A stretch of 64,000 nucleotides of DNA from Ginglymostoma cirratum (GCA_024137785.1 JAHRHZ010000058.1:18404215-18468214), one strand, 5' to 3'. Shown: positions 7,166-54,832, counted from the first letter of the stretch. The notes: generated by a model not told the origin, from the letters alone. Program-made: numbers and translations.

Positions 7166-7409
7166 CAAAAACAAAGTTGCTGGAAAAGCTCAGCAGGTCT
7201 GGCAGCACCTGTGAAGGAGAAAACAGAGTTAACGTTTCGGGTCCGGTGAACCTTTCTCAGAACTTGTTCTCAGAACAGTTCTGAGGAAGGGTCACCAGAC
7301 CCGAAACATTAACTGTTTTCTCCTTCACAGATGCTGCCAGACCTCCTGAGCTTTTCCAGCAACTTTGTTTTTGTTCCTGATTTACAGCGTCCGCAATTCT
7401 TTTTGGTTC
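7166..7409. mobile_element. Palindromic Penelope-like terminal cassette (family A) with a 12-bp TSD
   Basis: Inverted arms of about 97 bp (7166-7263 and 7278-7373). Direct repeat TTGTTTTCAGAG at 7154-7165 and 7410-7421. Each arm carries a hammerhead motif. Confidence 0.85.
7272..7319 (+). ncRNA. Minimal type I hammerhead ribozyme motif (G16.2 changed to A)
   Basis: AGAACAGUU-CUGAGGA-A-GGGUC acca GACCC-GAAAC-AUU^-AACUGUUUU: 9-bp stem I, 5-bp stem II. Confidence 0.75.
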
Positions 7410-8867
7410 TTGTTTTCAGAGTTTTGGTCTCATCATACCTGACCTACTTTCTGCCATTGACACCTACCATTAAAATATAATGTATAAATTGATGGAGCTA
7501 ACAGCTTTTTTTCATTAATGAAGAATTGGCATGTTATTGTGTTAACACCAATAGTACTATGGAAAAGTAAAGGTAAAAGGTTAATTCACTATCTTATGTT
7601 GGTAGTACCATTAATTGTCGCTACCAATGATAGATCTATCATTGGATGTGGACTGTGTCGAAAGGTTTGGATCTGATCTTTCTGTATTGGAACAGGGAAG
7701 TCCACAGGTATTACTTTTCACTGACGCCAGCATTTCTGCCATTAATCCATTCATCCAGCTATTTTTGTATCTGGGTTTTCTTTCATCTACTGCATGTTTT
7801 GTGTGTCACACTACCCTAATTACAAATACCATAAATTGCAGCATGCCAGTTGACCTAGGATATAAGAGCAACTCATTTCTCCAGCCTCAAAAAAATTATT
7901 TTTTTGCAGATACTTGGCATAAAGCTGACTCTTCTTTTCAGCCAAAACAGCTTTACTCACATTCTGGTTGGCCACAATTTCTTGCCCACGAATGCTTGGT
8001 TGTTTAGCTTATTGCTGGAAGCAAAGGATCGGGCAAAAGGCGCAAGCTATGTTGCTCAGATGAGCAGAAGTTTAAGACAGGCCACACGTGGCAAATCAAA
8101 TCTGGTTTAAAGCTAAAAATTGGAACATTTGCTAACATGTCCAGTATCTGCTGCAGCAAGTGAATTCAGTGGTACTTAAAATAGGGCACACATGGAAAAA
8201 GGTGTGAAGTTCAATGTAAGCTTGAAATCCAGCGTTGCCTCTTCAGTCTCAGAATTTTACAACTTTTGGGCTCTTGAGTTCAAATTTAAATGCAATCTGT
8301 ACTCCATTTTACTGTTTTATTGTTTGCTTGTTTCTTTATCCCTTCTTCATGTGTTCAGACTGCCACTGCATCGACGACTTACCTCATCTGGACACCAGCT
8401 TTGTTCCTTTACTGCCTTTGTAAAGAATAGAATTTGTGTGGAGACATGTTCAGATACCGTGTAAATGAGGTAACTGCAAAGGAATAGCACCAACATTGCA
8501 CCTAAGCCAGCGGTCTAACACCTGTAGTTCAGCCATTGGGTGTGTGATGTGACAGGCCATTCAAAGATCATATTTGCCCCTAATAAAATAGTTGTGTGGT
8601 TAACTGAGAAAGAAACCCTGACAGAATGTGGAAATATGCATACTGCCCGAATTGATACTTTGTGTCTTGTCATCTTCAAATTGTGGATGCTATCACTGCA
8701 CGAACCAGATCCTCCAACAAAAAATGGAGCACGGGAAGATGATTTCTTGACCATATTTGATTTCAAGTGGGATTGTTACAATAATGCCATAGTTAAAGTG
8801 ACTCGGAATAAATTTGTTAACTCTTTGCATCAGATGCTGACCGTGACCAATTTGATGGGTTTTAATC

Positions 8868-8968
8868 TGCTCTGAAGAGAGATCACTGGATCTGAAACAT
8901 TGATTCTGTTTTCTCTTCACAGATACTGCCAGACCAGTTGAGTTTTTCCAGCTATTTCTGTTTTTGTT
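8868..8968 (+). mobile_element. Family A single arm with hammerhead motif
   Basis: CTGAAGA-G-AGATC actg GATCT-GAAAC-ATT at 8872-8901, followed by the family A body cacagatactgccagacc…tttccagctatttctgttttt. Confidence 0.8.
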
Positions 8969-9196
8969 GACAGGTGTTGAAATGGTCACTTTGTGGATAA
9001 AGGTATTTATGCCCACGCACTCTATACAATAAGTCATTAATTTAATACAAGTGACTTTTTATTTTCAAATTTCAAAATCATGATCATCCACACCCACAAC
9101 AGTATTTTAGTATAATAAAAGAAACAAGCACGTATGCTGAAGATCTGAAACAAATTCAGAAATTGCTGGACAAAGTCAGCAAGTGTGCAATATCTG

Positions 9197-9596
9197 NNNN
9201 NNNNNNNNNNNNNNNNNNNNNNNNNNNNNNNNNNNNNNNNNNNNNNNNNNNNNNNNNNNNNNNNNNNNNNNNNNNNNNNNNNNNNNNNNNNNNNNNNNNN
9301 NNNNNNNNNNNNNNNNNNNNNNNNNNNNNNNNNNNNNNNNNNNNNNNNNNNNNNNNNNNNNNNNNNNNNNNNNNNNNNNNNNNNNNNNNNNNNNNNNNNN
9401 NNNNNNNNNNNNNNNNNNNNNNNNNNNNNNNNNNNNNNNNNNNNNNNNNNNNNNNNNNNNNNNNNNNNNNNNNNNNNNNNNNNNNNNNNNNNNNNNNNNN
9501 NNNNNNNNNNNNNNNNNNNNNNNNNNNNNNNNNNNNNNNNNNNNNNNNNNNNNNNNNNNNNNNNNNNNNNNNNNNNNNNNNNNNNNNNNNNNNNNN
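9197..9596. other. Assembly gap (400 N)
   Basis: Run of n; the ORFs spanning it are artefacts. Confidence 1.
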
Positions 9597-9697
9597 GGCC
9601 TAAACCCTTCAGGGTTTAGGCCCGAAACGTCAAGTTTTCCTGCTCCTATGATGCTGCTTGACCTGCTGTGTTCATCCAGCCCCATGCTTGTTATCTC
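9597..9697 (+). mobile_element. Family B Penelope-like terminal repeat at the centre of an inverted cassette
   Basis: GGCCTAAACCCT-tc-AGGGTTTAGGCC palindrome. 9611-9697 matches 47595-47681 with one mismatch. Confidence 0.85.
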
Positions 9698-9769
9698 AGA
9701 GCATTTCTGTTGGTCCTTTTAATAGCCAACCTGTCAGATCATTTACATCTGCTCAAGCCAGCTCTTGGT

Positions 9770-9885
9770 TTCACATCTTATCTAAAAGATAGCAGCTTCA
9801 TCGGTGCCTCAGTACCAAAATGTCAGATTACATTATGCTTTCAAGTTCTGGACGAGGGTGTGAAACCAGAACTCTGATTTCTATT
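9770..9885 (-). mobile_element. Deu-domain SINE (SacSINE1-like) 5' fragment, decayed
   Basis: catcttatctaaaagatagcagcttc…cagtacc…gtcagatta…tcaagttctggacgagggtgtgaaaccaga resembles the reversed tRNA head and body of this family. Confidence 0.5.
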
Positions 9886-10480
9886 TAAAATGGGTACACA
9901 TCTGGATGACAGTCCTGCAGATGTGCTGAGAACAATTTCTGTTTTATATGCACTACTGTATCAAATAGGTGGAGTTTAACACACTGCCTTACATTCATAA
10001 ATAACGTGAACCTTCTGTTTAGTGGTGGGCTCATATGATTTCAATTATGTAACCACTGACTAGAAATTAGTATGTTGCTAATTGCTCAACTATTGTATTT
10101 ATGAATGGCTGCAAAAACAATCGATTGCTTGGGGCTAGAATAATCCCAATTTGTCTTCAAGGGATAGTGGTTCGTTGCTCTATTGATTTTGTGATGAGAA
10201 ATACAAACAAGATTTCATCAATACGATCTGCCATATTTCTCTGGTTTTGTTGCTGTAGACTGTTACACCTGTTAATGGTTCTACCTTTTAATGGTTCTTT
10301 AATTAAAAGCTATTTGCAATGTGATTGAAAGTGCTTCTTCGCCATCTTCTGAGAATTTTAAAAATCTTAATTACAGCTTTAATTCAATAGTCCCAAATGC
10401 ATGTTAATTTAATAAAAGTGCACTGATGCAGTTTTGTTCTGGTAACTATTTCAATCACGTTTTGTAGTTAACAATTTTAA

Positions 10481-10620
10481 TCAGCTCTGGAGGAGGGTTG
10501 TTGGGTTGAAACATTAATTCCGATTTCTCTCCACATGCTGCCAGACCTGCTGAGCTCCTCCAGCAATTTCTGTTTTGGATTTTATTTCTGATTTCCCGCA
10601 TCCATAATTCTTTTGACTTT
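10481..10620 (+). mobile_element. Family A single arm, hammerhead core degenerate
   Basis: gaaacattaattccgatttctctccacatgctgccagacctgctgagctcctccagcaatttctgtttt. Confidence 0.8.
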
Positions 10621-11883: not shown

Positions 11884-13003
11884 AAAAGGGCACCAGAGGT
11901 GTGAAAGCTGGAAGGTTGTTGCAGTGACAGGCACTTCTGCCCCTCTAATTGTGTGATTTCTCTTTAAAGAGTGCCCAAGTTGACGATTATCTAACTAATG
12001 ATGCAACAAATGGAAGATTGTGGCTTTTGTCACTCAATAAAATGCTTTAATTGCAAATTGGTAGAATTCTGCCCAAAGTAATTTTACTTATGGCCATTTG
12101 GATAAATTTAAGCATCGCAGCTTTATCCAAAGAGCAGCTGTGTGTAACACATTTGCCAAGGGTGTATTGATAGTTGATATGCGTTGACAGACCTGAAATT
12201 ATTTTAAGTAATATTGTGTAACGTAACTATTCAGTTCATCATATTAGCTATCACGCTTTCAGTAAAACCTGGCTTTCCTCATAATTTCAGAGTTGCCTGA
12301 GTCAATAATTGTACTGCAAAAATCAACATGCTAATTTGTACATTTCCTTCAAGATGACTTGGCAGCTTTTCACCCTGTTCATATTCTGTTTGTGCATCTT
12401 GGTGACAGCACTATTTCTTCTGGCCAGTAAGCATTTAATGATTATAAAGAGTATATGTTGTGCTTTTTTTATACCAGTGAAACATGAGGAAAGAAAAATG
12501 CAGAAAACTCCAATATTACTTAACAGATTTTACTTGCAGTGGAAAATTTGCACTTCAGAGGTTTTGTCCTTCTGGAAGCTAAATGTAAATCTGTACCAAT
12601 GTAACTGATTTTGGAAGGACAGCTAACAGCAGTATTTAACTTGTACTGCAGAGAATTTATGGGGTTTTCTCTCAATCAGCTAGTGTATGACTCATCAAAT
12701 AAGATCTCTTCTTTCAACATGTGTAAATAAATTGTAATTTTAACAAACCAGATTTGATGACTCATTTATGCGACTTTGATGTAAAAGTGCTAAATTAGTT
12801 GCAGTTATTTAAATTGCAACTAAATAAAAACAGCATATCTGAGGACGTTCTTCTGGGTGAACTATTGTGGAAAATGTCATGAGTTATTTGTTTGAAAGTG
12901 CTTTGTAATGCCAAATGTTCCTTGGTAAATACCTTTTAAGAATCCAGTGACTAATTCCCGGATGTGGCAATATGCTAACTTGGTTCTGTTTGCTCGTTTA
13001 CAG

Positions 13004-13134
13004 GAATGGGTTACAGCAACTGATATCAAAGTGACCTTGAATAGATTGAATACTTTTGGAGATGAGGTCTTTAATGACCCAAAGGTTCTGAAGTCTTACT
13101 ATTACGCCATTTCGGACTTTGCAGTTGGTGGAAG
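13004..13134 (+). CDS. LAMC1: LAMC1 exon (human exon 3 equivalent), LN domain C-terminus
   Basis: tttacag|GAA...GGAAG|gtattt; [43 protein letters not shown](R); 131 nt. Confidence 0.97.
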
Positions 13135-16100
13135 GTATTTTTTAATTGTTTCTTCATTTTAATGTTTGTTTTAAAATCTGTGTTCTTGTTAACTCATGGT
13201 CATGTAACTGCATGAATTTTGCTGCTTTTGAAAAATTCTACTGCCAATGATATTTAATGTTAGATAATCAAAGTTACTTTGGTATTGACAGTCATAAACT
13301 TGGGGAACACATTGAAATACAATGATAATGTGCAGTAGGCTCTAATGGAGACTGAAGTTGTGCCAATTATATTTGGTATTGGGATTTTTGCAAGTCTGGT
13401 ATTTGAAGTAGTTAAAATATTTTCGCTAGGTTTAAGTTACTTCTGTAATACTTCATTCTCTTCCTATAAAAGGGAGACTCGTAAAGGCAGTAAAGTTTAT
13501 CAAGCTAGTGCATGTTTGTGTGTTTTTGACTCTCATTTATGGTGTGAGTTTACATTCACCAGGGTGTTTTTACTTGATGCGACCTTACTTAAATTATGTT
13601 CTGTGATGTAAAAAAATACTGGGAATAGACACTATGGTATTGTAGAATGCAACAGACATATATTACATTAATTACTATGCACAAACTTTATATTCCTCAG
13701 ACACATAACATTAAGCTGTTAGGTAACAATAGAGCAGCATGCTTTCAGTAGAGTGTTATGCTTTCAGTGATAAGTAAGGTGGGATTTGAGACTTATATAT
13801 ACCCTCAGGTCACCTGCTATAGTACAATAATGATGTCACAAGCAGGGCTGTTAAAGGTGTATTGATGGTGAAACTTAACACAGCAATTATATCAGATTAT
13901 GTAGTCCTGGGTTGTAAAGACTCCGAAGATTTGCGAATTATTTTGAATTAACCATTAGGAGTACACATGAGATCTTTCCTTTAAAAACTGTATGTACGGA
14001 TGGCCATGGCCATGCAGCAACGTACCGGTACTGCGAAGGCAGTTTGTGATCTTTTCCTTTTATGAATACCAAATGTGCAGTTCTGCAGACATAATTTAAA
14101 GCTACCACACTTAACGAATAAGATTTAAACAGGATATTGATCGTAACCGATACAAAATGCCAGATCAATAAGGAGCTAATTTATTATTATTATTTTTTAA
14201 AGGGAATGTATGTTCACAAATGGATTAATTTCACATACTCAATGTTTGGTGGTTAGTGGCTCGTATTTAGGCCTACGCTTAACAGGTTATGAAATGAATT
14301 GGAATAGATGAACAGAAGTAGATTGCTTAACCCCTTGAAACCGTTTTACTTTCCATGGCTATTTTATATGCCAAATCTATTTATTCATCTTTATACTATA
14401 TCCCTGCATGCCCCCCTTTCAAAAAATCTATCAAACCCTCGCCTTGAAAATTTCAATTGATTCTACCTCCAGAGAACAAAGTTCCATGTTTCTACTTCTC
14501 TTTCTGTGTGATTCTGATTCACTGCTGTTGCTTACTTTGAATTTAGCTGCTGACCTAATTCTGTGTTTTATGGAACATAGAACAGTTCAGCAGATCTTGT
14601 GTCTTCCCACTCTGATTAATGTAAATCAGACCAAATAATGGGAGTAGGAGAACAATTGTTTAATAGTTGGTGCTACAGAGTTGGGTTCAACATGAAACAA
14701 CGCAATCGTGAATTAGCAAGAATATATAAAATTCATTGAAATAAGGGATTTAGTTTGTGGGCAAATGGAGCATAGATAAACAGTAGGAAATCTGTGAATG
14801 TGGCAAGGTTACAGTGCAAGGTAGATGTTTCGGTACGGAGTCATATCAAAGAAAAAGCTCTGTGCTCAGAAATTCAAATCAGACATAATTATAAAAGTGA
14901 GGCCTGTGAGAAAATTAGTTCAACAAAAGAGTACTGTGAAATATAGAGTAAAAGGGAGATGAAAAGAAAAAGATAGACCAGGAGTGAATATAAGAAAAAG
15001 CTAAAAGCACAAAGGAGAAGGGGCGGGGTGGGGGGGCGGTGTCAGATGCAAAGACAAAGAGTTGGCTTTCAGCACCCTATCCCTGCCTCAGATTTGGGCA
15101 AATAGAAAATGCTTCCCCAAAGCAAAAAGATGGATGCTCCGTTATTATAGTGATCGTGTAGTCTATTACTTTCTTTATTGGCTGGGTCAAAATTTAATTG
15201 GGCCTGTGGCAAACTAATACCTTAACTCAGGATTTATTTGAGTCCAATTAAAATCTATTACAATTGTCCTGAATCCTCCTCCTTCTAGCTTTGTAAATCC
15301 TTGGAGAGGGTGCAGAAAAGATTTACTGCATTGATAACAGGAATGAAGAATTATGTGGAGATACTGGAGAGCTGTAGTTGTATTGTTGGAGCAGAGAAGT
15401 CAAAGAAGAGATTTAAAAGAACTGCTCAAAGTCATGACCAGTTTTGGTAGAGTAGATGAGGGGCTGAATCATCTGTTTTTATTTCTTGTGTGGCACTTGG
15501 AGATGGCAGAAACGTTTAATTAGGAAAAATGGGACATACATTAATCCTGTCCACCTTTGCCAGAATTAAGTCAGGAAGGAGAAGACTCATTAGACCTGCT
15601 GCACTGTGATCAATTGAGATCCATAGGTGACCAACTATAAGGACCATGTAAAGGTCTCATTCAACTGCTGCTGGTATGACCGCAGCTGCATGTGGATCTA
15701 GCAACATGCAGCCTGTGTGACAGGCAAAACTGTGACCCATTTGTCATCTCCCAGGCGCTTGGTTCCTTGATCAGAGTCACTGTGTGACTCTGGTGCCTGT
15801 CCTTATGGTCATAACAACTGCTTGCCCAGTGGAGTTGGTGAGCATTAAAGTTGTTGGCCTCTGATTTGTTTCCAAGGGTGGGATCTCTGGCCGGGTCTTA
15901 ATCCTGGGAAAAGGCCCGCTGCTGGCCTTTCCTCTGTTTGTTTGGTTTGGTGTGCTTTCCACTAAAGAGGCAACAAAGTTTGTTTAGCTCTCCAGCCAGA
16001 AGGTGAGACCCCTGATGCCTCAACAAAATTTCAGCCAAGATTTTTGGTGGAAGGCACAATTTTATAGGAATTGGGAAAGAATCAGAAATGAAAGAGGGGA

Positions 16101-17039
16101 ACTTTTTTTTTGCCGCTGAGATGATGATCTGCATTGTCTGAAGTGGTGGCAGCAATTTTGACAGTAATCTTCCAAAATGATAAATTCTTGAAGGGCTAAG
16201 GGGCAAGAACAATGGAGTGGGCTTAAGTGTATTGCTTTATCTGAGAGCCCACTAACGTGAGATGAAATGATCCATCACTACCTATGACATATCATTCTGT
16301 TTTATGAATGAAGAGCATATTTGTGATTAAGGTAGCAAGACGTCTTATGGGAAGCTTGTTACAAAAGAAAACTTGTACGGTTCAAAAGGATATGTAAAAG
16401 ACAATAACAGGTTTTGTTTTGAAGAAAAGAGAAAATGATGTAACCAGAGTTTTAACGGATGCTGCCAGGATTGGAGAACCTGTTGAAATGTTGTGGGCCA
16501 GGATTGGTGCTGAGGTCAATTTTATTTTCCGTATTTATAGAAATATGGTATTGATATATGACCTTTTAAAACATGCCATTTTTCAAGTGTGAAGCAAAGT
16601 GTTGAGTACTGAAAGCCGGTATAAAAACTCTTCTGTCCTCCGTATGTCGAAGCAGTCCATTTCCCCCAACCCGCCATGAACCAGTTAGAGCAGCCCTAGT
16701 TAACTGAGAGTTTAGTGCTGTAACTATTTTATTGCTTCCTCTTGTAGCTACTTGGACTGACTAAACACAACCGGGAATCAAGTGAGGTTGCTTATTTTCG
16801 GTGAGAGATATGTTGTTTTGAGAAATCTAATTTACGTTGTATAAACTAAGAATTGGAATAGAAATCTTCCCAGGAGAAATGTCTGGTTTGCTTGAAAAGC
16901 TCAGAGTTTTTGTTTTTTGAAGCAACAGTTCAGGAAAACACCCACACTCCCCAACATGGAATTAAACACTTGCATTACGAAACAAATGGCACAACTAAAG
17001 TATAATGCAGTGTTACAGTTGACATATATTTGACAGCTC

Positions 17040-17345
17040 TCCCTCACATGCACGCGCACTCTTTTTCTCATGCTGACTCTCCCCACCCCCAATCTCTCTC
17101 ACCACTCAACCCCCGCCTGTCAGTATCTCTCACTGCACCTCCACTCAGCCATGCCCCATGACACTCACTCTCCACTCGTGCGCCAGTCTGTCTCTGTTTC
17201 TCTTCCTTTTTCTCTCTTCTCACTCTTCCTCTTTCCTGGCTCTTCCCACCACCCCCCACCTCCTCCTCCTCTTTCCTCGCTCTACCCCCCCTTCCTCTTT
17301 CCTCACTCCCCACCAGCCACACCCCCAGTATCTCTCATGACTCCC
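17040..17345 (+). repeat. Pyrimidine-rich low-complexity tract
   Basis: C/T-dominated sequence (ctctc, cctcct, cccc runs); produces the low-complexity ORFs at 17068-17360. Confidence 0.8.
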
Positions 17346-18064
17346 TTATCAATCAGCTAGACTTGCTGTTCCCATCACCCAGTTAGCTAACACCCATCAA
17401 CAGCAGCAGCTCCAGATGATTGCTTCTCCAACATGCCTTCTCACTCGTTCCTCCTCACCACTTCCCCACCCCAAACTGCAGTTTGCTTAGGCTCACCCCT
17501 CTCTTTGCCTCCCGGTCATGTTGTCACTCGCTCCTGCCTCCTTGTCCCTGCGCTGAAATCTATTTGCAACATTCTCCCCTTCAAATTTGCCTTGAAGGTG
17601 CTGCATTTGACAATTTCATAATGTTATTATTCAATTCTGCTCAACTCTCGGGAATGAGCTTTATTGCAAAATTTTCAATAGGACATTCAAGACAGTGTGT
17701 TGAAGAGGAATTCAAAGGTGATGGGCAGGGAGTGATGAGATGAGACGAGACAGAGTCAGAAGCAAATTGCATATTAGGGCTGCAACAGTTAGCTGAGCTT
17801 CTATGAAGGAAATGAGCTACACATGTTTTGTAGGGGACTTGGTGTGAAGTTGAGAGCAATAAATGGTTAGAGCTTTGGAGAAATTCTAGGAATTAGGCAG
17901 TTAAGTGTTGGATTCAAAACTCGAATATCCTTGGAAGAGTGGAAGGCCACAGGCTTGGTGTTGGTAGCTGTGAAGGCTAAGAAAAAGCATTTAGGTTTTA
18001 ACACTTGGGTAAAGTGGACAGTGTTGGCAGTATTTGCTGGAAGCCACTGAGTAAGATCATGACT

Positions 18065-18700
18065 TCCCTTTTGGCAGTCAACAACCTTTCTTACCAATGG
18101 GAAAAGTTTCTCTCTCTTCGTGTATCCTTACTAGATCCTTTATGATTTCGAACACTTCCACCAAATTGTCTCAACCTTATTCCCTGTGAAGAACAATCCC
18201 AGGTTCTCCAATCTATCTTTAATACTTGAAACCGTTCTTATAAACCTTCTCTGCACCACTCTAATTCGTCAATGTTTTATGGGAATAATTCCAGGGATAA
18301 GGGATTTGGGTCATTTGGACGGTTTGGAGAAGCTGAGATTGCTCTTCTTGGAGAAGATAAGGTTGAGAAAAGGATTGATAAAAGTATTCAAATTCTCGAG
18401 ATTTGAGCAGCTTAGATGGAGAAGCTATTCCAGTTGGCAGGGCAACCATTTAAAGTGATTGACAAAATATCCAATTATTTCTTTCAACAAAGGACATGTT
18501 GATGTCGTGAGTGGCTGGGACCTGGAGTACGTTGTTTGAGCGTGAAAGGATGGGAGTCAGATATAATTTGTGTTTGCAAATTCAAATTAGATAATTACCT
18601 GAAATAACACGATTTGCAGGCCTATGAATAAAGGGCAGGATGTAGGACTAATTGAATTGTTGATGCAGAGTGCTTGGCACAGACACAGTAGGATACAAAT
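18065..18700. mobile_element. Two back-to-back decayed CR1 fragments (minus about 18065-18260, plus about 18270-18700)
   Basis: IPGIRDLGHLDGLEKLRLLFLEKIRLRKGLIKVFK in ORF 18186-18458, with the reverse of the same region immediately upstream. Confidence 0.65.
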
Positions 18701-21347: not shown

Positions 21348-21371
21348 ATTTACATTTACATTTACATTTAC
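21348..21371 (+). repeat. (TTTACA)4 microsatellite
   Basis: tttacatttacatttacatttaca. Confidence 0.9.
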
Positions 21372-21386
21372 AAGAAAAAGCAAATA

Positions 21387-42312: not shown

Positions 42313-42425
42313 GCTTCATGAAGTAACGAGTTATCCGTGGAGGCCGCAGCTTTCTTCTTTTGAATTTCAAAGGCTTCTCCACAACTTGACAGCTATCAAG
42401 ATTCGAGGCACATACAGTGAGAATA
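42313..42425 (+). CDS. LAMC1: LAMC1 exon 11 equivalent, L4 domain
   Basis: tgacag|G CTT...AAT A|gtaagt; [37 protein letters not shown]; 113 nt. Confidence 0.97.
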
Positions 42426-43711: not shown

Positions 43712-43869
43712 ATAGCCAGAACTGCAGGGCTGGAGTCAGACAATACAGTGTGGAGCTGGAGGAACACAGCAGGCCAGGTAGCATCAGAGGAGCAGGAACG
43801 TTGACGTTTCAGCTCAGGACCCTTCTATGTTATTGCTGTGTTCTTCCAGCTCCACACTGTATTGTCTCT
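43712..43869. mobile_element. Family B inverted cassette with an 8-bp TSD
   Basis: 33-bp inverted repeat 43738-43770 / 43835-43867 (1 mismatch). TACTGAAG at 43704-43711 and 43870-43877. Minus strand keeps stem II remnant plus GAAACGTC. Confidence 0.8.
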
Positions 43870-44990
43870 TACTGAAGTCTATCAGTACTATACAAATTTG
43901 TGTTGACCTTACACCGCTTAACAAAGTGATGCAAAGGGAAATCCATCCTATGTCTGTGGCTGGTGGAAGTTTAACTAAGCTGTCTCAAAGGAGAATTCTC
44001 ACAACTCGGATGTAAATAGTGCATGATGGCGTGTGCCATTGACCAGCAAGATTGCTTACTATGTTCAGAACTCCACTTTGAGAGAGTTTGTTTCAATGGA
44101 CTGCAATTTGGGATGATCTTGGCCCCAGAGATTTTTCAGTAGACTGTTTCCATTTTACAAGTCTTCATAGAATCATATGCCCCCTGGTTGTTTTATTGAT
44201 ACACAGTGGCACAATGGCCAGCAAACCACACTCCGCATAGCCAGATCCAACAGGAATAGTTGAAGATCTAGAGGTATCACAACATCCATTGATGTTATGT
44301 TGAAACTTGTCCAGATTGAAGTCCCAGCAGGGATGCTTTTGAAAACCTATTATGAGCATTGATCCTGTTTTATAATTTTGGACAATATACCAGTGTATCA
44401 TAAGTGACTGGTCGTTCCAATTTCACTTTCAGTCCAGGAGCACTTGTGAATCACCAAGTGCCAAGCCAGAGCTTGGTCAGCATTGTGGTGACCAGGGATC
44501 TCTAAGGATATTGATGATTTCATTGTTTATTGTGAGTTGCTTCAAATCAACAACGTATATTGAGACCCTCCCATTTCCTACTAGATGGAAGATATGGGCA
44601 TTTGTTTTTGATGGAAGATCTCCCCTAATTGCTGCAGATTATTTCTGTTTCCTTTTATTGCAAAGAAACATCACATGATATTTCAAGGATAGGTCCAGGG
44701 GAAATAAAAACCAAGTCAGGGGGCAGATTTTGAACTGTGACCAAACGTTAAGTCAAAAGAAAAGGGTTTGAAGTGATCTTTTTTAAAGGTGGCAGAAGAG
44801 ACGGTAAATTTTAGGGATGGAGTTCCATAGAACGTGAAAGACTGGCGCATCATTTTTGTATTTAAGTCCATGTAGATTTAATTCCAATAAAATAATACAA
44901 AACTAACATTGTTCACCTGGTCTATGCATATTTTCAACGTTTTTGAAAGTTTAATGTGTTTGCAGCTAACTTTTGGTCATGCCTCCATAG

Positions 44991-45212
44991 GTGCTGGTCA
45001 CTTGGATGATGTAACTCTGCTCACTGCTCGTCCTGGCTCTGGATCTCCCGCTGAATGGGTAGAACAGTGTACCTGCCCAGCTGCATACCGGGGCCAGTTC
45101 TGTGAACAATGTGCACCAGGCTACAGGAGGGAGGATCCTAGGCTTGGAGCTTTCAGTTCCTGTGTGCCCTGCACCTGCAATGAACATAGTGATACCTGCG
45201 ATCCTGAAAGTG
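44991..45212 (+). CDS. LAMC1: LAMC1 exon 12 equivalent, end of L4 / LE
   Basis: ccatag|GT GCT...AGT G|gtgagc; (S)AGHLDDVTLLTARPGSGSPAEWVEQCTCPAAYRGQFCEQCAPGYRREDPRLGAFSSCVPCTCNEHSDTCDPES; 222 nt. Confidence 0.97.
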
Positions 45213-46571
45213 GTGAGCGGCAATAGTTTAATGAGAAATAAACTCTGCTTAGAATGATGGCTTGTGCTTACTGACGCAATATGAAATAAGCCCTTGCTTG
45301 GATTAGTTTATTTAGTATATATCATGCTTTATGTGATGGTATTTACCCTACCCGTTTCCCAACCATCACAAACTCTCTTCTTTCCCTGCCTCTTCTGAAA
45401 CAACCTGTATGTGTTGTGAATTTAGTTTCTGAATTCTGAATTCATAGTGTGTAAGGGTAGATTAAATTAAACGTTTTTCTTACTCCTTTATTTGTGTACA
45501 ATATCTTAACTTATCAACATCAGGAAGACGTTGGACTGAAATCATCATGAGCTTTATTGTTCATCGACCTAATTCTCTATCCATAATATCACTTGCAGTG
45601 ACATGCATGCTGCCTGAATCAGAATATGGTTGAATGCAAGAAGGCATTGTGATTATGAGTGGGTTCCTTTACTTATACAATGAGCTATTTTTATAGACAA
45701 AAACTGTCCATCTTCATCATGGATGCTAATAGTCTGGAAGAAGCTGGAGTTCCATTTGTGTTTGAAGAGGATTTTTACCTCCACATTCTTTGGTACCTTG
45801 TTTTAAATGCAGGAGTTGAAGTTTCCATTAAAAGAGAATTTTCACATTTGTTTATCTGAAAGCCTGATATGTAGAAATGTTTTAAAACCTCACCAAGCCT
45901 TGAAGTATTCCTTACTCTCTAGGTTCAAATCATAGAACGCATTAGCTAACAGCATTGTGGAAGCACCTTCACCACTGGCTTCATCAGCTTCCTGTTGACA
46001 CTTAGTTAGGTTGGACCAGTGTCACCCAAATTCCGAGGACTACTTTTTTAAGAAATTGCTTTCTTACTGCCCTTTAGTGCTTTAGGTCTCTCTTGCTAAA
46101 TCTTAAAAACAAAACATATGTAAATTTTCAGTAATGTTATTCATTTCAACGCTGCTGTTTCCTTGATTTTGTTTTGGAGAAGTCTGAAGTTATTACCTAT
46201 AATGAACAATCTTCTCATGTTTTGGATCAAGACAATCCAGAAGAACATGTCAGATCCCCGCACACCCATACATGAGTAAAAATCGCCTCTGCAAAATTTT
46301 ACATTTGTCCTGGGGTTTTCCATCGTTGTTTGAAAATTCACAGGAAAATTTCAGGTCACTGTCAAATATGTGTAGCATTAAAACTGCCACTTGGTATCTG
46401 TAAAATACCTACCTTACAAGGAATTTGCTGCAGTCTTGCCTGTCATTCTAAAGGATCTGTGCACACTTGGTATTGATACAGAAAGTGCTAACAATTTGAG
46501 CATTTTAATTTCTGGAAACTATATTTGATATACGGATAATTAACTACTTTATTAACCAATTCAATTTATAG

Positions 46572-46760
46572 GTGAATGTTACTGCAGAGACAATACAGCA
46601 GGATCAAACTGTGAGCGGTGTAGGGATGGTTACTATGGTGATCCTACAGTTGGTAGCTCAGAGGACTGTCGTCCGTGCCCTTGTCCAACTGGTTCAAGCT
46701 GTGCCATGGTGCCAAAAACCAGGGATATAGTGTGTACCAACTGCCCTAAAGGAACTACTG
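46572..46760 (+). CDS. LAMC1: LAMC1 exon 13 equivalent, LE domains
   Basis: ttatag|GT GAA...ACT G|gtgaga; (G)ECYCRDNTAGSNCERCRDGYYGDPTVGSSEDCRPCPCPTGSSCAMVPKTRDIVCTNCPKGTT; 189 nt. Confidence 0.97.
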
Positions 46761-47039
46761 GTGAGATCCTCAAAGTTTGAAAAGCATTTTTCTTAATCAG
46801 TACAAATATTCTGGTATGTATGAGAGAGGTGGTTCTGTGTCAAGAAACACAACATAAGAATATGTGATCAAGAACATCATCTGAGAAGACAGTTGCCACC
46901 TGTTAACTCTTCCCCCCTGTTTTCATCAGGCAACTTAGAAGTTTCTATTGGGAAAATTGAAGCCACTGTTTTTGGTCTCCTCAACAAACTCTGGCAACAT
47001 TCTAAGATAAAATCGTCTGTTTGAAATCTTGGTATTGCA

Positions 47040-47565
47040 TTTCATTTTGAGATGAACTTCAGACCTGTCATCACCTCGTTACTAAGACTTCCTATTTCCA
47101 CCCCTGCAACATTGCTTAACTTCACCCCTGTCTCGGCTCATTTGCCACTAAAACGCTCACTCATGCCTTTTGTTTCTTCTGCACTCGGTAGACCTGGCTT
47201 ATTTCCCACATTCTACTCACTATAACTTTGAGATTATCAAAACTTCAGCCCACACCTTAACTCGCAGCAAGTCATGTTTTTCTATCATCGTTATGCTTGC
47301 TGATCTGTATTGACTCCCTGTCGCAACAACCTTCTTTTTAGTTCTAATGCTTGTTTCCAAAACCTTTCCGTGGCCTTATCCCTGTGTATAATCTTCTCCA
47401 ACATTACAAGATATCTGTGCATTCCCAATTGCAGTTCCACTGGAGACCAAGCCTTCAGTTGCCTGGGCTGTGAATCACATCTGCACCACTTTAGCTCACG
47501 GTCCTCCTTTGGAAGATACCCTTCAAAATCCCCCTTTCTGACCAGCCTTTTGGCCACCTATCCTG
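47040..47565 (+). mobile_element. L2-clade LINE 3' fragment, decayed
   Basis: actaagacttcctatttccacccctgcaacattgct…aaaacgctcactcatgcctttt resembles L2 ORF2 TKxxYFHLRNIA…ETLIHAF; L2-like 3' region gccttcagttgcctgggc. Confidence 0.7.
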
Positions 47566-47586
47566 ATCTCAGAATCCATTTGACAA

Positions 47587-47681
47587 TCTGATGAAGGGTT
47601 TAGGCCCGAAACGTCAAGTTTTCCTGCTCCTATGATGCTGTTTGACCTGCTGTGTTCATCCAGCCCCATGCTTGTTATCTC
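47587..47681 (+). mobile_element. Family B single arm (about 95 bp) with TGACAA target duplication
   Basis: TGACAA at 47581-47586 and 47682-47687; near-identical to 9611-9697. Confidence 0.85.
47588..47615 (+). ncRNA. Minimal hammerhead ribozyme core, fully canonical; stem I poorly supported
   Basis: CUGAUGA-A-GGGU uuag GCCC-GAAAC-GUC^ with palindromic ACGU stem III. Confidence 0.75.
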
Positions 47682-48560
47682 TGACAACCTATTGGTACTT
47701 CCTTTTCATACAGTGTTAAATGTTGATTTCCCTCGTGAATTGTCCTGATGAGTACAAGTCAGAAACTTTTGACAAAATGTCTATTTTCAGCAATAATCAA
47801 GTTCTGTGTCACCAAATGATTACCCTTTGTTGTTTAATTTATTCATAAAGAATTGAGCTGTTTCTGGTTCAAGAGCAGTATATGGTTGAAAAGCCATTAA
47901 CTGAAATCAAAGATTTTTTTGTTGCTCTCATTTGGCATTAGAAATTATAACTTTCATAACTTGGAACATTAAATATGGTTGACTGGAATGCTGTTGTGAT
48001 CAGTAAATCTACTAGTCATTGGCAGAGATTGTTAGCTTCAGTGAGCGGCTAGAACAAGAGCTCCTGTATGTCTTTCACAGAAAAGGTTGGAATCCCCAGA
48101 AAAGAGAGGCTCCCACAGACTTTTGCATGCTATCGCATGCAAAACCTCAGCAAAAATTCTGGTTTTGGTTACAGAAGCTTGGTTCAGTTGGAGGGATTTA
48201 TTATTACTTCCTGATGTCATGTTTGAGCTTACTTAAATGCTTGCTTTCTATTTAAATGGGACCTTTTTTTTTTAAAAGATAATCTTTCATATTTATTTTA
48301 TTGGTTACAGTGCAAAAGTTTAGCACCACTAGTTAGGCACTGTATTTTGTTGCTGAATGTTGATTTGGACTGATTATTGATTGTAAGTGCATGATGATTC
48401 CTTTAGCCTTTGTGCCTTTTGCATTTTGTATTAGCTTTGAAAGAACTGTTTAGTCACTCCAATCAGTATTGTAACGAGGGGAATTCTGCTTAGAACATGG
48501 GAATGTTTGTTTTCATGAATTTGGTGTATTTGATAATACATTTTCTTTCAATTCAAACAG

Positions 48561-48806
48561 GTAAAAGGTGTGAATTATGTGATGATGGGTACTACGGTGA
48601 CCCTTTAGGAAGTGAGGGGCCTGTGAGTCCATGTAAACCGTGTCATTGCAGTGACAACATTGATCCAAATGCTGTGGGGAACTGTAATCGGCTGACAGGA
48701 GAGTGTTTAAAGTGCATCTACAACACTGATGGATTCTACTGTGACAAATGTAAAGATGGATTTTATGGAAATGCATTAAACCCAATTCCGTCAGAAAAAT
48801 GTAAAG
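48561..48806 (+). CDS. LAMC1: LAMC1 exon 14 equivalent, includes nidogen-binding LE repeat
   Basis: aaacag|GT AAA...AAA G|gtaagc; (G)[81 protein letters not shown]; 246 nt. Confidence 0.97.
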
Positions 48807-49370
48807 GTAAGCTTCGTATTTTACTGTATGTTCATGAAATGCTTTCAAAATGTCTAATTTTTAAATGTGCATATTAACATTAACTCCAATGAAAAATAAT
48901 AGTTCAAATCTCTCTGACTGTAAGATTTAAAGTAAATTAAATTGATTTAGTATCTTAAAATGCAATATATAAAATAAATGCGCTGTATGGAGCAAAACTG
49001 GTGAATTACCAAAACCTCCTTCAGTGTTAATTTATCTTTGACTGACAGAAATTTCATTACTGAATAATAATTTTCTTTTAACCCAACAAAACCTTTAGTT
49101 TTGCAGTTATTCTTTGAGTCATTTGTGTGTTGTCTTTTCTGATGTCTTTCACTGTATTTTTGGGGGCAACTTATTTATAGGACAAAGTATCTCAACGTTT
49201 TCCCAGCAACTGAGTGTGGGTGCCTTACTTGCTTTTTTTAAAAACTGTATAATGTTATGAGCGGAAAATACAAAAACGAGTTTCTTGCTCTTCTCTGCTG
49301 ACTCTTGCGCCTCTTCCTTCCTGCCTTGCCCTACTCAAAGATCTAACGCCCTGATTGTTTCTGTTTGCAG

Positions 49371-49524
49371 CTTGTAACTGTTCTCGATATGGCACTGTGG
49401 ATCAGCAAAGGAACTGCAACCAAGTCACTGGTCTGTGCGAGTGCTTAGCTCATGTCGTGGGCAGGGATTGTAGTCGGTGTGAGTTAGGCTATTACAATCT
49501 TCTGAGTGGCCAGGGCTGTCAGAG
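49371..49524 (+). CDS. LAMC1: LAMC1 exon 15 equivalent, LE domain
   Basis: ttgcag|CT TGT...CAG AG|gtaagt; (A)CNCSRYGTVDQQRNCNQVTGLCECLAHVVGRDCSRCELGYYNLLSGQGCQ(R); 154 nt. Confidence 0.97.
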
Positions 49525-50054
49525 GTAAGTTGAATGGAGGAATTTGAGTTGATTGATTTTCTTTCTGCAGCAACCTGTTACTTCACTTCAGTGAGAAATT
49601 GAGCTAACAAGTCTTTTGGGGCCTATCTGCCTTGTGAAAGCGCATGAGAGAGAAGCCTTCTCATAAAGTGAAATTGTGTAAATTAATGTCATATTTTGGG
49701 CATCCAGCTCCTATCTGTTTTGCATAAATAATTGCTGTTTACTATGTTTATTTAACAAAATACAAAGGGTACAGCAAAGTTGAACACTTGGGAAAAATAA
49801 AGACCCTTTTTATATGTTATTGAAGCTTATTTTCTTTTTCTGCTTATGGGCTGGTGAAGAAATATTTGAGCCATATTTGTACGCAGAGTTGGAAAACACA
49901 CAAAAGGAGTTAAGGAATATGAATTGCATTGAAGGGGGCCCTAGTTTCCTGTGAAAGCTAACAAAATCAGGAAAAGTTGCTGGCATCACTGCTGTTGACT
50001 ATTCCTCCTGACAGTCTGTTGCTTTGTTCCCTTTCTATACAAATCTTAGTGTCA

Positions 50055-50550
50055 AAGTCATAGAGTCATAAGCACAGAAACAGGCCCTTTGCTCCAACCA
50101 GTCCATGCTGACCATAATCCCAAATTAAAATAGTCCCACCTGGGGGTGGCACAGTGGTTCACTGGCTAGCACTGCTGCCTCACAGCGCCAGGGACCCGGG
50201 TTCAATTTCACCCTCGGGTGACTGTCTGGAGTTTGCATGTTCTCCCCGTGTCTGCGTGGGTTTCCTCCAGGTGCTCCGGTTTCCTCCCACAGTCCAAAGA
50301 TGTGCAGACTGGGCGGATTGGCCATACTAAATTGCCCGTAGCATTCAGGGATGTGTAGGTTAGGTGGGTTATAGGGATGGGTCTGGATGTGGGATACTCT
50401 GTGGGTTGGTGTAGACTTGCTGGGCCGAGGAGCCTGTTTCCACACTGTAGCGGTTCTATGATTCACCTGCTTGCACTTGGCCTGTATCCCTCCGAACCTT
50501 TCCTATTCATGGTACTTATCCATATGTATTTTAAATTTTGTAACTGTACC
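50055..50550 (-). mobile_element. CR1 3' fragment interrupted by a SINE
   Basis: gtcatagagtcata…ccaaccagtccatgc…tagtcccacctg | cacctgcttgcacttggcc… is colinear with 23170-23330. Confidence 0.85.
50143..50463 (+). mobile_element. Full-length HE1-type V-SINE
   Basis: tRNA head with box A TGGCACAGTGG and box B GGTTCAATTTC. V-domain ggagtttgcatgttctccccgtgtctgcgtgggtttcctcc…ccggtttcctcccacagtccaaaga. CR1-derived tail. TSD CACCTG at 50137-50142 and 50464-50469. Confidence 0.92.
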
Positions 50551-52622
50551 TACGTTATAATGTCTCATCCAAAAAACAGGTTTCCAACAATGCAGCACCA
50601 GTTCAGCGTGCTGCGGGTGCAGTGTAGATACTGAACTCAACTCTTAGCAAGATTGCTAACATTTAGTGAAATCCAAGAGTACACAGGTCATTGTGCATGT
50701 TTTAAGTGGCAGTAATCGCAGCAATCGAAAGTTATTTAGTCCATCGTCTATTCTAATCGCTGTATATACAATTATGCATTGTAACGACTGAATGTGGTAA
50801 TGCATTGGAAATAGTTTAATAAACATATCCAAAGTTGTTGTGAGCAAAATCAATTAAATCATGCTGTAATATCCAAAGTGCTGTGATTAGAATAATCTAA
50901 CAAAATTACTAGTGGAAACATTGAAAAAACATCTGTGCAATCTGCAAGTGTTAAAAATGGCAATCTTCAGAAAGTACAGAAGGAATAGTTGTGTGTAAGA
51001 AACAAATAACAAGGAAGTGCTGGTAATAGTGAAATTAGGCTACCGTTTCCCTTTTAAACAAAAGGGCGCCAGTATGAGTAAACAGAAGTTTTGTACTCTG
51101 AGCAACCAATGCTGAGATCTACAATTTCCATGTTGAATATAAATTTGCTTCCATACAACATGCCCTCACTTCTACCTTGTGAAACTAAAAGCTCCAGTTT
51201 TGTCGTCCTGCTTGAATTCTTGGCTCGGTAATAGCAGTGCAGCAGAAATTGAACAGAAGCTAATATTTCAACATTGGAAGAGTTTTATTCTAAATCAGGT
51301 AGCTGCTCTGATTTAGAACAGCTATAGACTCTAAACAGCAAAATGTGGTTGCAGCATTTTAGAGACAGCCCTACATTCTATCCACACGTTGTTCCAATCT
51401 TACTGCCACGCTCAGTAAGGAAACGATAAGAGAACTTAATGTATTATTTTGAGATTTCCCAGATTAAGTGCCAAAGCTCTGATTGATACAGTCGTATGAA
51501 TTCAGTATATTGAGAAAGAAAAGCACTTCTGTTTCCTTTGTTTGAAATAATGCTGTTTACTTACAGGCTTGCCACTGAGATCAAGTATTTTGTTCTGCTT
51601 ACTGACAAGTGTGGATTCTCATTACTTCAACGTAACTTATTGTTTGAGATTTTATAAAGAAAATAATTTTCTTTTGACTTCTTTTCCCCCAATTTCAATC
51701 CCTTTTTGTGTCCTGTCCTTTGCTTGCTATACAGTATTTTACAATTAAATATTCCAATTTTTGCTCCCTGGTTTGGAGCTCGCTCTCTCTCAGATCCTTC
51801 ACTCTGGCTGTAGAGCTATACTTTTGTTGGTTCAGCATCCTCATGTTGCGAATGTTCTGTTGAAGCTGACACATTAGATCAGGCACACGTGAGCAGTCTC
51901 TGCCCTAAAGCTCCCAAGAACTCTGGGTGTTCAGCTGTAATGAATGGTGGATGCTATTTGGTGCTGACTGTACCACCTAGACCAATAATTTCATTGAACC
52001 ATTGCTATATATTAAAATAACTTATTAAATATTAAAATCTTAAACTTTGTAACATGTAATTCAGAGGCACAGTGATGGTGCAACTTGGTCTACAATTCCC
52101 AGAACACTGGTTAATAATTTTGCATGTAAATTTTGCAATGACCACTCTGTTCCAATGGTTCCTTTATAGCCTGTTAACTTCGTTTACTTGGTAACTCATT
52201 TGTGACCATATTTGGTGCATTTTGTTTGACAGCTCATGTGGGATAATGCTATTGAATATCTCTTTAGTGTGTATTCTACTTATATCACAGATTGGATAGA
52301 ATAATTAATTTTAAATCTTAATTATGTGGTTGCAAAGTGGGTCTCACAAGAGTGCACAAAATATTCCTCCTAGCCTTCTTACACTGGCTGGTTGTAGTGT
52401 GCCGTAAACTCAAAGAATAAGAAAAGTATTTGACAGAGATGATTACTTCTCATATAATGTGTTTACTGTTTGCATAAATGGTAATTGCCCCTTTTATAGT
52501 ATATGATGGGACCTGGATTAACTAGTTAACCTTTTAATCTTGCAGTTCAATAGTTAACATTATTCTTCACAGCAGAACATGAAGGGTTTCATTGGTTGAA
52601 TTCAGCAATTGTTTGCTCACAG

Positions 52623-52765
52623 GTGTGACTGTAACCCCATTGGTTCCATTAACGGCCAGTGCGATGCCCGGAACGGACAATGTGAATGTCAGCCTGGTGT
52701 TGTTGGTCGGCAGTGTGATACGTGTGAACCGTACCACTTTGGATTTGGCCAGGATGGATGCAAAC
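52623..52765 (+). CDS. LAMC1: LAMC1 exon 16 equivalent, LE domain
   Basis: tcacag|G TGT...AAA C|gtaagc; CDCNPIGSINGQCDARNGQCECQPGVVGRQCDTCEPYHFGFGQDGCK; 143 nt. Confidence 0.97.
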
Positions 52766-52870
52766 GTAAGCAAACTATTTTTTAAAAATAACTTCCGGGA
52801 AAATCTCTCAAAAATTGTTCTCGCCATTTTCTAAAAATCAAGTGTGTGAGTAATTTATCTTTTCTTGCAG

Positions 52871-53049
52871 CCTGTGATTGTGACCGTGAGGGCTCTCGAT
52901 CTCTTCAGTGCAAGGAAGACGGAAAGTGTGACTGTAAGGAAGGATTTGTGGGCATACACTGCGACCAATGCGAAGAAAACTATTTCTACAATCGGACAAG
53001 ACCTGGCTGCCAGGAGTGTCCTACATGCTATAGGCTGGTGAAAGATAAG
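52871..53049 (+). CDS. LAMC1: LAMC1 exon 17 equivalent, last LE domain
   Basis: ttgcag|CC TGT...GAT AAG|gtagaa; (P)CDCDREGSRSLQCKEDGKCDCKEGFVGIHCDQCEENYFYNRTRPGCQECPTCYRLVKDK; 179 nt; preceded by a 105-nt intron. Confidence 0.97.
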
Positions 53050-54371
53050 GTAGAAAATACTACTTCTACATTTGATAGTTATACTGTTACACAATGCTTC
53101 ATCTGATCCTTCTGATGGTGGGGCTATTCAAAGGGGCAGTTTATGAATGTTGGGTGAGAGTGAGATCACGTTACCTTTTAGTTGTACTTGAACTCTCAAT
53201 TTGCATATGAAGGAACAGCTAGTGCAAAATACCAGATAATAGCCAGACCTTAGTCCTTTCAAAGATTGGATAGGAGAGAACATATTTTGGATGTTTTCTT
53301 CATTTGAAATCAGTTTAGCTTTCCTCATTGCTTCCTTTCTCCTTTTAATATTCTTTACAAGCAGCTATTAGAAGTTCCCTTCAAATGAATTTAGATTTTT
53401 TATTTCAAAAATACATTATGAATTTCCGAATTTTAGCCACTTAGCATGTTAAGTTCATCATTATTTTGTTTTATGATCCTCGTAAATTTATGTCCTGTTA
53501 TTACTATTCTGCCTACCTATGGAAACCATTATTATTTGCCTTTTCCTTAACTGTTAATTTTGACAATCTTAATCAGGTCACCCTGTTTGGTTCATATTGT
53601 TTTGCAATCAGCTATGGAACAATAGCACCCACTGTTAATCTTGATGAAAGCCACTATGCAAAGATTTAATGATCTGTGACATTGATTTCTCCCCTTCCCA
53701 ATGTTAGTTTAAATCTGACTCCATGTCAAGAGGGTGTCTTAGTTTGCAGCAATGGTAATGTCAGTAAGCAGGTTTTAAAAAAAGATCACATTGAAAACAG
53801 GAAGTTAATAGCCTTTGCATTTGGTATCTGAAAATCTAAATTGAATTAAATAATTATAATAGTACTTAGAAGGTAAAATAAGCATTAAAACCTGAAAACC
53901 ATTAAAAATTATCCATAACTTTTACAAATTATTCATAATTTTTACATTCCTCAGATTTTAAAAATTCTTCTCAGTGTGGGTAGTTACAGTAGTAATTATG
54001 AAACTGGTATGCCATTTAAAACTTGTTATATCTCTTTGGCAATATATAGCTTTTTTCAAGGAATTTTACAGCAGAATTAATGACATGAAAGTGCAAGATT
54101 TGTCAATTCCTTTTGATTTTCCATTTGATTGCGGTCTTGGGAAATCTCAACAGTACACCCATTGGAGGTGTAGGATCACTGATAACGATCCTTGAATATC
54201 AGTGTTTTATCATATTGGAGAACTCTAGAGGTTCCTGTCAGATTCAGTGGAGTAGTGAGGTCAAACACTGACACTTCTTCATCCATGAATATTAATAATG
54301 TTATCTTTTCAACATGAGGGAAGAAGCCTAGCTTTCTAAATTCTTTCTCCAAACTTGTACCTCAACATGTT

Positions 54372-54665
54372 CTTGTGAAAGGGAAATTATGTTTGACTAA
54401 TTTATTAGTTTGTTTATTGATGTTCTTGGAGGAGACAACATGCTTTTTGATAAGGGGGAAACCAGTGGATTTGTTTTGCTTAGATTTCCAGAAGACATTT
54501 AGCGAAGTTCTACGTCAAAAATTATTATGTTAAATGAGAGCTCATGATGTAAGGGATAACTGAATAGTATGGATAGTGGATTGGTTGGCTAATCAATCCT
54601 ATCAACCGTGGTTTGTTGAATGATAGAGCTGGATAGATGCAACAAATAATCTTCTACTGCTCACA
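54372..54665 (+). mobile_element. CR1 RT fragment, decayed
   Basis: tgtttgactaatttatta…gataagggggaaaccagtggat…ttagatttccagaagacattt = CLTNLL…DKG/PVD…LDFQK. Confidence 0.75.
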
Positions 54666-54689
54666 TCACTAATTTAAATGTTCAACTCT

Positions 54690-54832
54690 GCTAACGTGGC
54701 ATATAAACCAACATTTTCCGAGGTACCATCAGTTCTGAGGAATGGTCACCGGACCTGAAAATGTTAACTCTTATTTCTCTCCACAGATGCTGCCAGACCT
54801 GAACTTTTCTAGCAATTTCTGTTTTTCTTTCT
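54690..54832 (+). mobile_element. Family A arm with hammerhead motif
   Basis: AGTT-CTGAGGA-A-TGGTC accg GACCT-GAAAATGTT-AACT at 54731-54769, then the family A body. Confidence 0.8.

Follow-up and report, generated by a model that had tools for sequence, protein, structure and literature searches.

Decayed repeats with a minimal hammerhead motif, probable terminal pieces of Penelope-like elements, in intronic DNA of the Ginglymostoma cirratum laminin gamma-1 gene

A stretch of 64,000 nt of Ginglymostoma cirratum DNA (GCA_024137785.1 JAHRHZ010000058.1:18404215-18468214; hereafter the window) was found to carry 23 repeat units at 14 loci, which belong to two related families (A and B) and begin, when complete, with a minimal type I hammerhead ribozyme (HHR) motif. 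We consider, with a probability of about 85%, that these repeats are decayed terminal repeats, that is, pieces of the pseudo-long terminal repeats (pLTRs), of at least two endonuclease-type families of Penelope-like elements (PLEs) of elasmobranchs, bearing the minimal hammerhead known from such elements. The window itself is, judging from its protein matches, intronic DNA around exons of the elasmobranch laminin subunit gamma-1 gene (LAMC1).

A first profile was built from six core-bearing copies, and refined profiles together with a listing of junctions gave the final set of units. The six-copy profile recovered the family, with E values down to 1e-35, at every position where an earlier note on this DNA had placed a copy, and the reversed window gave a best E value of 2.7 with the first profile and no match at E ≤ 1 with the refined ones. 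The two families described in that note were recovered as well, while its count of about a dozen repeats proved too low, the units it had missed being 9597-9614(-), 29203(+), 29589(+), 34805-34897(-), 35083-35170(-), 35168-35250(+), 35279-35350(+) and 43834-43867(+). Two weak profile matches, at 9842-9945(+) (E 0.024) and 42664-42698(-) (E 0.019), were left out of the count and may be very old copies of the family. The units are 100-135 nt long and consist of the hammerhead, a further stretch of approximately 65 nt and an optional tail of approximately 25-30 nt; their 3' ends are fixed and their 5' ends variable. Family A units are 54-87% identical to their own majority sequence (18 units) and are more diverged than those of family B, two copies of which are 98% identical over 90 nt (9611-9700 and 47595-47684). 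The loci occur once in approximately 4.5 kb, and the repeats occupy about 3% of the window (22 units measured).

The search for the hammerhead motif used the published descriptor of Cervera and de la Pena 2014 (supplement of PMC4209133), with 200 dinucleotide shuffles as control. The core together with stem II (CUGAnGA-x-stem II-GAAA-NN-UH) gave five matches, namely 7281+, 8872+, 47588+, 25208- and 31082- (copies being named by the position of core nucleotide C3 and the strand), compared to a mean of 0.12 and a maximum of 2 in the shuffles, so that the motif is approximately 40-fold above chance. Adding the published helix I of at least 3 bp left one match, 7281+, compared to 0.005 in the shuffles. 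The motif agrees in detail with the PLE consensus and descriptor, including the extra base after A9, as had been proposed earlier, and cleavage is predicted after GUU in family A and after GUC in family B. The eight cores listed in the earlier note need revision: the five copies just named match core plus stem II, one of them, 25208-, with an 8-nt deletion across the cleavage site, and of the others 7260- carries G8A, 35059+ has A6U and no match past GAAA, and 54735+ has a one-base insertion in helix III and a U-U at the base of stem II.

Comparison of copies further supports the presence of the hammerhead fold in the source element. In a set of 10 copies, pairing occurs in 87.8% of the cells of stem II and 64.6% of those of helix I, both sides of the pair have changed in 6 of 10 pairs (a level reached by 8 of 500 shuffles), and registers slid out of place pair in at most 49.5%. 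Since 64.6% of its cells still pair, helix I was likely present in the source element and is broken in most copies. Core positions were also better conserved than the flank, moderately so, in a comparison that the earlier note had proposed: at the 11 invariant core positions 122 of 132 cells agree, compared to 706 of 895 in the downstream part (17 family A units, the misaligned 29222- being dropped), and after removal of the five seed copies the values were 68/78 and 444/589 (p 0.012). The core-bearing copies are also found when the profile is restricted to the downstream part, and the link between repeat and core is thus independent of having searched for the core. We read this conservation as reflecting selection on the source elements rather than on the copies in the window. 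At positions 15.2/16.2, CG is kept in 7260-, 47588+, 9611+ and 43825-, and CA, TG or TA stand elsewhere, including in the lone full match; this series, noticed earlier as a (C/U)-(G/A) variation, corresponds to what CpG decay of a single palindromic CG would leave.

The ends of the units agree with PLE end anatomy. Seven head-to-head inverted pairs occur at 6 of the 14 loci, along with one tail-to-tail abutment, and the head-to-head pairs have their junctions either within the ribozyme or at its 5' edge; the remaining eight loci are single-armed, and the inner ends differ from pair to pair. Five of 20 units (p 0.002 each) extend past the common 3' end into a tail of related sequence; this tail is degraded, and is present on 7281+ and absent from its partner 7260-. 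Flanking duplications of 6, 6, 7 and 8 bp were found at 4 of 12 insertions, compared to 14 of 300 random spots (p 0.002), their ends being set by eye with the same slack allowed in the control. The duplication of 25208- sets the 5' end at 5 nt upstream of C3, and that of 47588+ puts the start of the unit 1 nt upstream of C3, which means that the 5' strand of helix I is missing in this copy. Neither poly(A) nor a 3' microsatellite is visible at the 3' ends in the end listing, and the window contains no full-length element and no tandem array of hammerhead units, the one short tandem being 35168+/35279+. The inversions, tail and duplications, on which the earlier note did not draw, support its designation of these repeats as Penelope-like termini, while the reverse transcriptase (RT) plus GIY-YIG open reading frame (ORF) that would be expected next to a longer element was not found in the window.

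The 5' boundary, which the earlier note did not describe, is sharp. Family A homology ends 3-6 nt upstream of C3 in nine copies, and these share no sequence at -60 to -7 of C3 (p 0.47). If a long element were truncated at random, copies reaching further upstream would be expected; the boundary could instead reflect run-off from an internal start close to the 5' end of the RNA, or a template that was short and non-autonomous. Roughly half of the units begin inside or past the hammerhead. Between the first two units of the cluster at 34805-35350 there is a 155-bp unshared spacer; its sequence (34898-35050), which lies between two head-to-head units, is pyrimidine-rich on the minus strand, has no second copy in the window and may be the sole piece of upstream element sequence there. 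The junction of the inverted pair at 7250-7285 contains, in addition, a short stretch of the 5' edge in inverted orientation, which suggests two template switches. A predicted protein from another source (P0001) reads through a head-to-head junction, apparently an identical one, at the ribozyme's 5' edge.

Several results weigh against the reading as PLE termini with a hammerhead. The covariation set consists of 10 related rows, one of them from the other family and one poorly aligned, and such few and related rows are modest evidence. With the seed copies removed, the core (68/78) is not significantly better conserved than the best downstream block (262/327, p 0.10). A hammerhead-shaped minimum-energy fold was better than in shuffles for one of seven copies, 7281+, in which helix I and stem II form the minimum-energy structure (z -2.5). 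A motif scan of the window for PLE ORFs was negative, and Pfam found no PLE RT or GIY-YIG in the 300 longest of 765 stop-free frames of at least 40 aa, the matches besides laminin being one non-LTR RT fragment and one DDE_1 fragment (all frames scanned being 60 aa or longer); the earlier note had likewise seen no such ORF. Among 20 + 3 protein matches to the short reading frame of the repeat, none has an RT or GIY-YIG domain (Pfam, precomputed or scanned), and this frame, tried as a route to a PLE protein, returned only host-gene models; two of the matches in that search were one chance repeat protein and one parkin model. Membership in the PLEs is thus inferred from structure, and absence of an ORF beside solo ends is expected. 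Finally, the Rfam hammerhead families gave no match at E ≤ 10 with the whole window or with the best copy. Rfam is not known to have a model for the PLE minimal hammerhead form.

Taken as PLE termini, the repeats would have arisen as follows. An RT/GIY-YIG protein encoded elsewhere would nick AT-rich DNA, as work on PLEs suggests, and reverse transcription would begin internally on the element RNA, at either of two sites, which would give rise to the optional tail. The template would be uncleaved RNA, because the copies span the cleavage site. Synthesis of cDNA would stop at or inside the hammerhead, with a frequent template switch that produces the inverted arm. Selection would keep the ribozyme core in the source elements, with slow cleavage as a dimer or with the help of protein, and intronic copies would then decay neutrally, CpG loss breaking the palindromic helix III.

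Table 1. Repeat units and other features of the window (coordinates counted from its first nucleotide; copies named by core position C3).
Feature	Position	Strand	Remarks
Family A unit	5106..5214	-	5'-truncated at GAAA box; possible tail (p 0.06); 6-bp flanking duplication
Family A unit, C3 7260	7160..7270	-	G8A; left arm of head-to-head pair; tail absent
Family A unit, C3 7281	7272..7402	+	Right arm; tail present; only full descriptor match
Minimal type I hammerhead of 7281+	7274..7320	+	Helix I, CUGAGGA+A, 5-bp stem II, GAAA-CA-UU; predicted cleavage after 7310
3' splice-acceptor-like stretch	7309..7333	+	UUAAC at cleavage site, pyrimidine tract, CAG/ATG (slash, predicted splice point); AG ends at 7330
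Family A solo unit, C3 8872	8863..8967	+	Stem II: two A-U replace G-C; helix I broken
Family A 3' part with tail	9128..9196	-	Cut by assembly gap 9197-9596
Family B stub	9597..9614	-	Palindromic head-to-head junction at gap edge
Family B unit	9611..9700	+	Begins at stem II; 98% identical to 47595-47684
Family A solo unit, C3 10487	10477..10606	+	A6G, A9G; tail present; acceptor AG lost
LAMC1 host gene (laminin subunit gamma-1)	12998..62497	+	18 exon matches, residues ~249-1244
Family A solo unit, C3 25208	25116..25213	-	8-nt deletion across cleavage site; 7-bp flanking duplication
Degenerate head-to-head pair	29134..29247	both	Minus arm 29134-29202 with tail; plus arm 29203-29247
Degenerate head-to-head pair	29486..29638	both	Junction in stem II; includes unit 29589(+)
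Family A solo unit, C3 31082	30958..31091	-	Core intact; helix I closing pair broken; tail present
Cluster of five family A units	34805..35350	both	34805-34897(-), 35053-35085(+), 35083-35170(-), 35168-35250(+), 35279-35350(+)
Family B head-to-head pair	43712..43867	both	Minus arm to 43826; plus arm 43834-43867; 8-bp flanking duplication
Family B solo unit, C3 47588	47587..47684	+	Core, stem II, CG palindrome intact; 6-bp flanking duplication
Family A solo unit, C3 54735	54727..54832	+	One-base insertion in helix III; U-U at stem II base

The closest competitor differs from the preferred explanation in one point, namely that the copies would be full-length small elements rather than truncated ends: an independent short non-autonomous element, SINE-like or a retrozyme monomer, derived from a PLE end, transcribed from a start of its own immediately upstream of helix I and mobilized in trans. 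The stop of shared sequence 3-6 nt upstream of C3 is what such an element would leave, and the 5' ends set by duplications at -5 and -1 fit it as well; moreover, HHR retrozymes are derived from PLE pLTRs, with dispersed monomers, in bioRxiv 10.64898/2026.07.22.740005. No tandem array of the unit was found, however, the 5' end of about half of the units falls within the hammerhead or beyond it, the 34890(-) unit may run upstream through the 155-bp spacer, and autonomous PLEs have inversions and tails too, all of which leaves the short element as a possibility with odds well below even. A DNA transposon like a miniature inverted-repeat transposable element (MITE), flanked by terminal inverted repeats, or else a 3' terminal piece of a long interspersed element (LINE) of CR1/L2 type, resembling a hammerhead by chance, would agree with the absence of a PLE ORF, with two loci that are bounded by inverted arms (64 nt, 95%, and 34 nt, 97%), and with the CR1-type RT and DDE_1 fragments in the window. 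This is highly improbable given that 8 of 14 loci are single-armed with inner ends varying between pairs, that the duplications are variable or absent instead of fixed in length, that the 3' ends bear no visible poly(A) or microsatellite, and that a motif 40-fold over chance matches the PLE consensus in detail.

It is also very unlikely that any of the copies acts in its intron as a functional or domesticated ribozyme and cuts the laminin gamma-1 pre-mRNA, alone or in a dimer of sense copies such as 7281 and 8872. The full descriptor match and fold of 7281+ and the partial retention of the core in five sense copies are in favor of this reading. Box 1, stem II, palindrome, U16.1, H17 and helix I are, however, all intact in none of the 11 core-bearing copies, and the identities to the family A majority sequence go down to 54%. 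Both 7281+ and 8872+ have C15.2/A16.2, which is not palindromic and cannot pair in a dimer; 7281+ is moreover predicted to be tied up with its inverted arm in a 99-pair hairpin (-168 kcal/mol), and inverted arms, lying on opposite strands, cannot form a dimer with each other. Metazoan minimal HHRs are, in addition, reported to be inactive as monomers and of low activity as dimers (PMC4209133). The copies in the window are fossils, and the intronic ones most likely do not cleave host pre-mRNA. The earlier expectation of a very large, probably unannotated ribozyme population was in this respect overstated, the more so as solo minimal HHRs had been published for coelacanth and Xenopus.

A second feature beyond the earlier note is a 3' splice-acceptor-like sequence of family A, located past the cleavage site and formed by a pyrimidine tract and CAG/ATG 19-22 nt downstream of it, with UUAAC, which we take to be branch-point-like, on the cleavage site itself. 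The acceptor AG is retained in 10 of 14 family A units and is missing in all three family B copies that cover the site. Searching with the peptide that starts at the acceptor ATG gave 20 protein matches, and all nine with a named organism are from sharks or rays. Relative to the ATG codon, seven of the 20 matches begin exactly there, following unrelated host sequence, five begin one Q before it, one begins at residue 1 of the protein and seven reach further upstream. In zebra-shark importin-11, isoform X1 is distinguished from X2 solely by a 26-residue insert beginning at the acceptor methionine, and the peptide appears as a cassette in elasmobranch gene models of importin-11, GLE1, LMBD1, carnitine acetyltransferase and others. 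According to predicted gene models, then, other sharks appear to use the family A acceptor as the start of a cassette exon. A selective loss of the AG in copies in host-sense orientation was not supported (kept in 4/7 sense and 6/7 antisense units, p 0.56). Two further candidates were set aside: a TCAGTT at the 5' edge, which we take to be initiator-like although it is too short for the likeness to be tested, fits badly as a transcription start with the acceptor only about 55 nt downstream, and pairing of the tail with the region past the acceptor occurs in some folds and was not better than in shuffles in five of five cases (z -0.07 to -1.76).

Exonization of repeats is a known process, and the above results allow a speculative proposal, which we hold to be rather doubtful. 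Family A would be a mass-distributed portable 3' acceptor with its branch-point-like site on the cleavage site, so that splicing and self-cleavage of the source element compete and dispersed copies feed new cassette exons. If this is true, splicing, possibly from a donor site of the host and independent of any promoter of the element, would remove the ribozyme and place the ATG in an mRNA, and the unspliced, uncleaved RNA would be the template for transposition. A number of copies in the order of 10^5-10^6, extrapolated from one window, would then continually supply sharks and rays with new cassette exons, a role comparable to that of Alu in primates, and a young intact minority could cleave pre-mRNA. 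The acceptor would make a connection of ribozyme and intron with transposition open to test in a vertebrate PLE, and would explain a short foreign peptide that recurs in shark gene models, either as real minor isoforms or as annotation noise. The intron of Drosophila Penelope is described as ending 5' of helix I (PMC4209133), whereas the acceptor-like site of family A lies 3' of the cleavage site.

With respect to known systems, PMC4209133 describes minimal HHRs in Xena, Poseidon and Neptune PLEs of fish, coelacanth, Xenopus and reptiles, massive in number and mostly solo (approximately 4,000 in coelacanth and 9,000 in Xenopus), with pairs on opposite strands; chondrichthyans are absent from the species of its Fig. 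S3 and Table S1. The motifs described there share with the window CUGANGA with the extra base after A9, a G-C-based stem II of 4-5 bp, GAAA-N-N-U-H, a U-rich flank, mostly solo copies and opposite-strand pairs and, probably in the source element, a palindromic 15.2/16.2 and a short helix I; both cleavage triplets, GUU (family A) and GUC (family B), are present in its figure. Set beside these published numbers, the density in the window is one locus per 4.5 kb by homology and only 1 per 64 kb by the full descriptor. Head-to-head junctions, an optional tail, variable duplications and solo pLTRs are reported for PLEs in PMC8557442 and PMC3846280. In anole Poseidon (PMC11167929), the RT has two internal start sites, by which the tail is defined, approximately 85-92 nt 3' of the cut site (by subtraction from the figures given there), the template is uncleaved RNA and the ribozyme cuts only with protein present; an uncleaved template accounts for shark copies that span the cleavage site. 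The units resemble the Penelope/Poseidon and Neptune pLTR fragments of these three papers in 5' truncation, in head-to-head arms with palindromic junctions, in a tail that may be present or absent, in target duplications that vary or are lacking, in a pLTR containing a start codon with the first codons after it, and in a 3' end approximately 65-95 nt past the cut site. Differences concern size, the tail being approximately 25-30 nt here and 30-40 bp in known PLEs, and the units 100-135 nt compared to 190-220 bp for rotifer pLTRs.

Other hammerhead-bearing sequences are less similar. The animal non-LTR retrozymes (PMC7229834; bioRxiv 10.64898/2026.07.22.740005) are also non-coding, carry type I HHRs, are related to PLEs and occur as dispersed monomers, but they are defined by tandem arrays, which the window repeats do not form. 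The latter source reports tandem HHR retrozymes in one chondrichthyan, averaging 363 bp, and cleavage in one of nine frog dimers tested. The amniote intronic hammerheads of RECK, CTCL and DTNB (PMC6155905) are likewise type I HHRs in introns; those are canonical, single and conserved across species, whereas the shark copies are minimal, multi-copy, on both strands and decayed. For shark genomes, a whale-shark preprint notes PLE expansion in introns, an eLife paper lists Penelope as present and a catshark paper does not name it; no shark-specific report of such repeats was found among the literature matches listed, most subscription journals, Repbase and Dfam lying outside the search.

On the reading as PLE termini, the repeats extend the known minimal hammerheads to elasmobranch repeat families, which fills a taxonomic gap and changes no concept, and they suggest a very high density of such repeats in elasmobranchs. 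Extrapolated from this one intronic window, a genome of approximately 3 Gb would hold several hundred thousand loci, and, from the single match of one window, some tens of thousands of full descriptor matches. The sharp 5' boundary at the ribozyme would provide a genome-scale readout of where PLE cDNA synthesis ends.

The window has a G+C content of 39%, a CpG observed/expected ratio of 0.28 and one assembly gap of 400 bases (9197-9596), which begins at a family A copy and ends in a family B palindrome; in this region (9197-9622) the inverted repeat may be the cause of the gap. The laminin-domain exons are on the plus strand, and one exon had its best protein matches in laminin gamma-1 of sharks and rays (Hemiscyllium 95%, Callorhinchus 71%). 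None of 22 repeat units tested overlaps any of the 18 LAMC1 exon matches: 15 sit between mapped exons and seven precede the first exon in the window (residue ~249), the latter being presumably intronic as well.

Further dispersed repeats are found at 11800-11881, 23179-24276, 36736-37913 and 50071-50510. The stop-free frames contained, by Pfam, a non-LTR-type RT fragment (RVT_1, 23878-24276, minus strand), the repeat around which is presumably CR1-like, and a DDE_1 fragment at 21637-21855. The latter, an endonuclease fragment, lies in the stretch 21637-22241, which is probably a remnant of a DNA transposon of the pogo/Tigger type. An unrelated pair of 48-nt repeats, 47773-47820 and 57854-57901, lies in opposite orientation and is 83% complementary.

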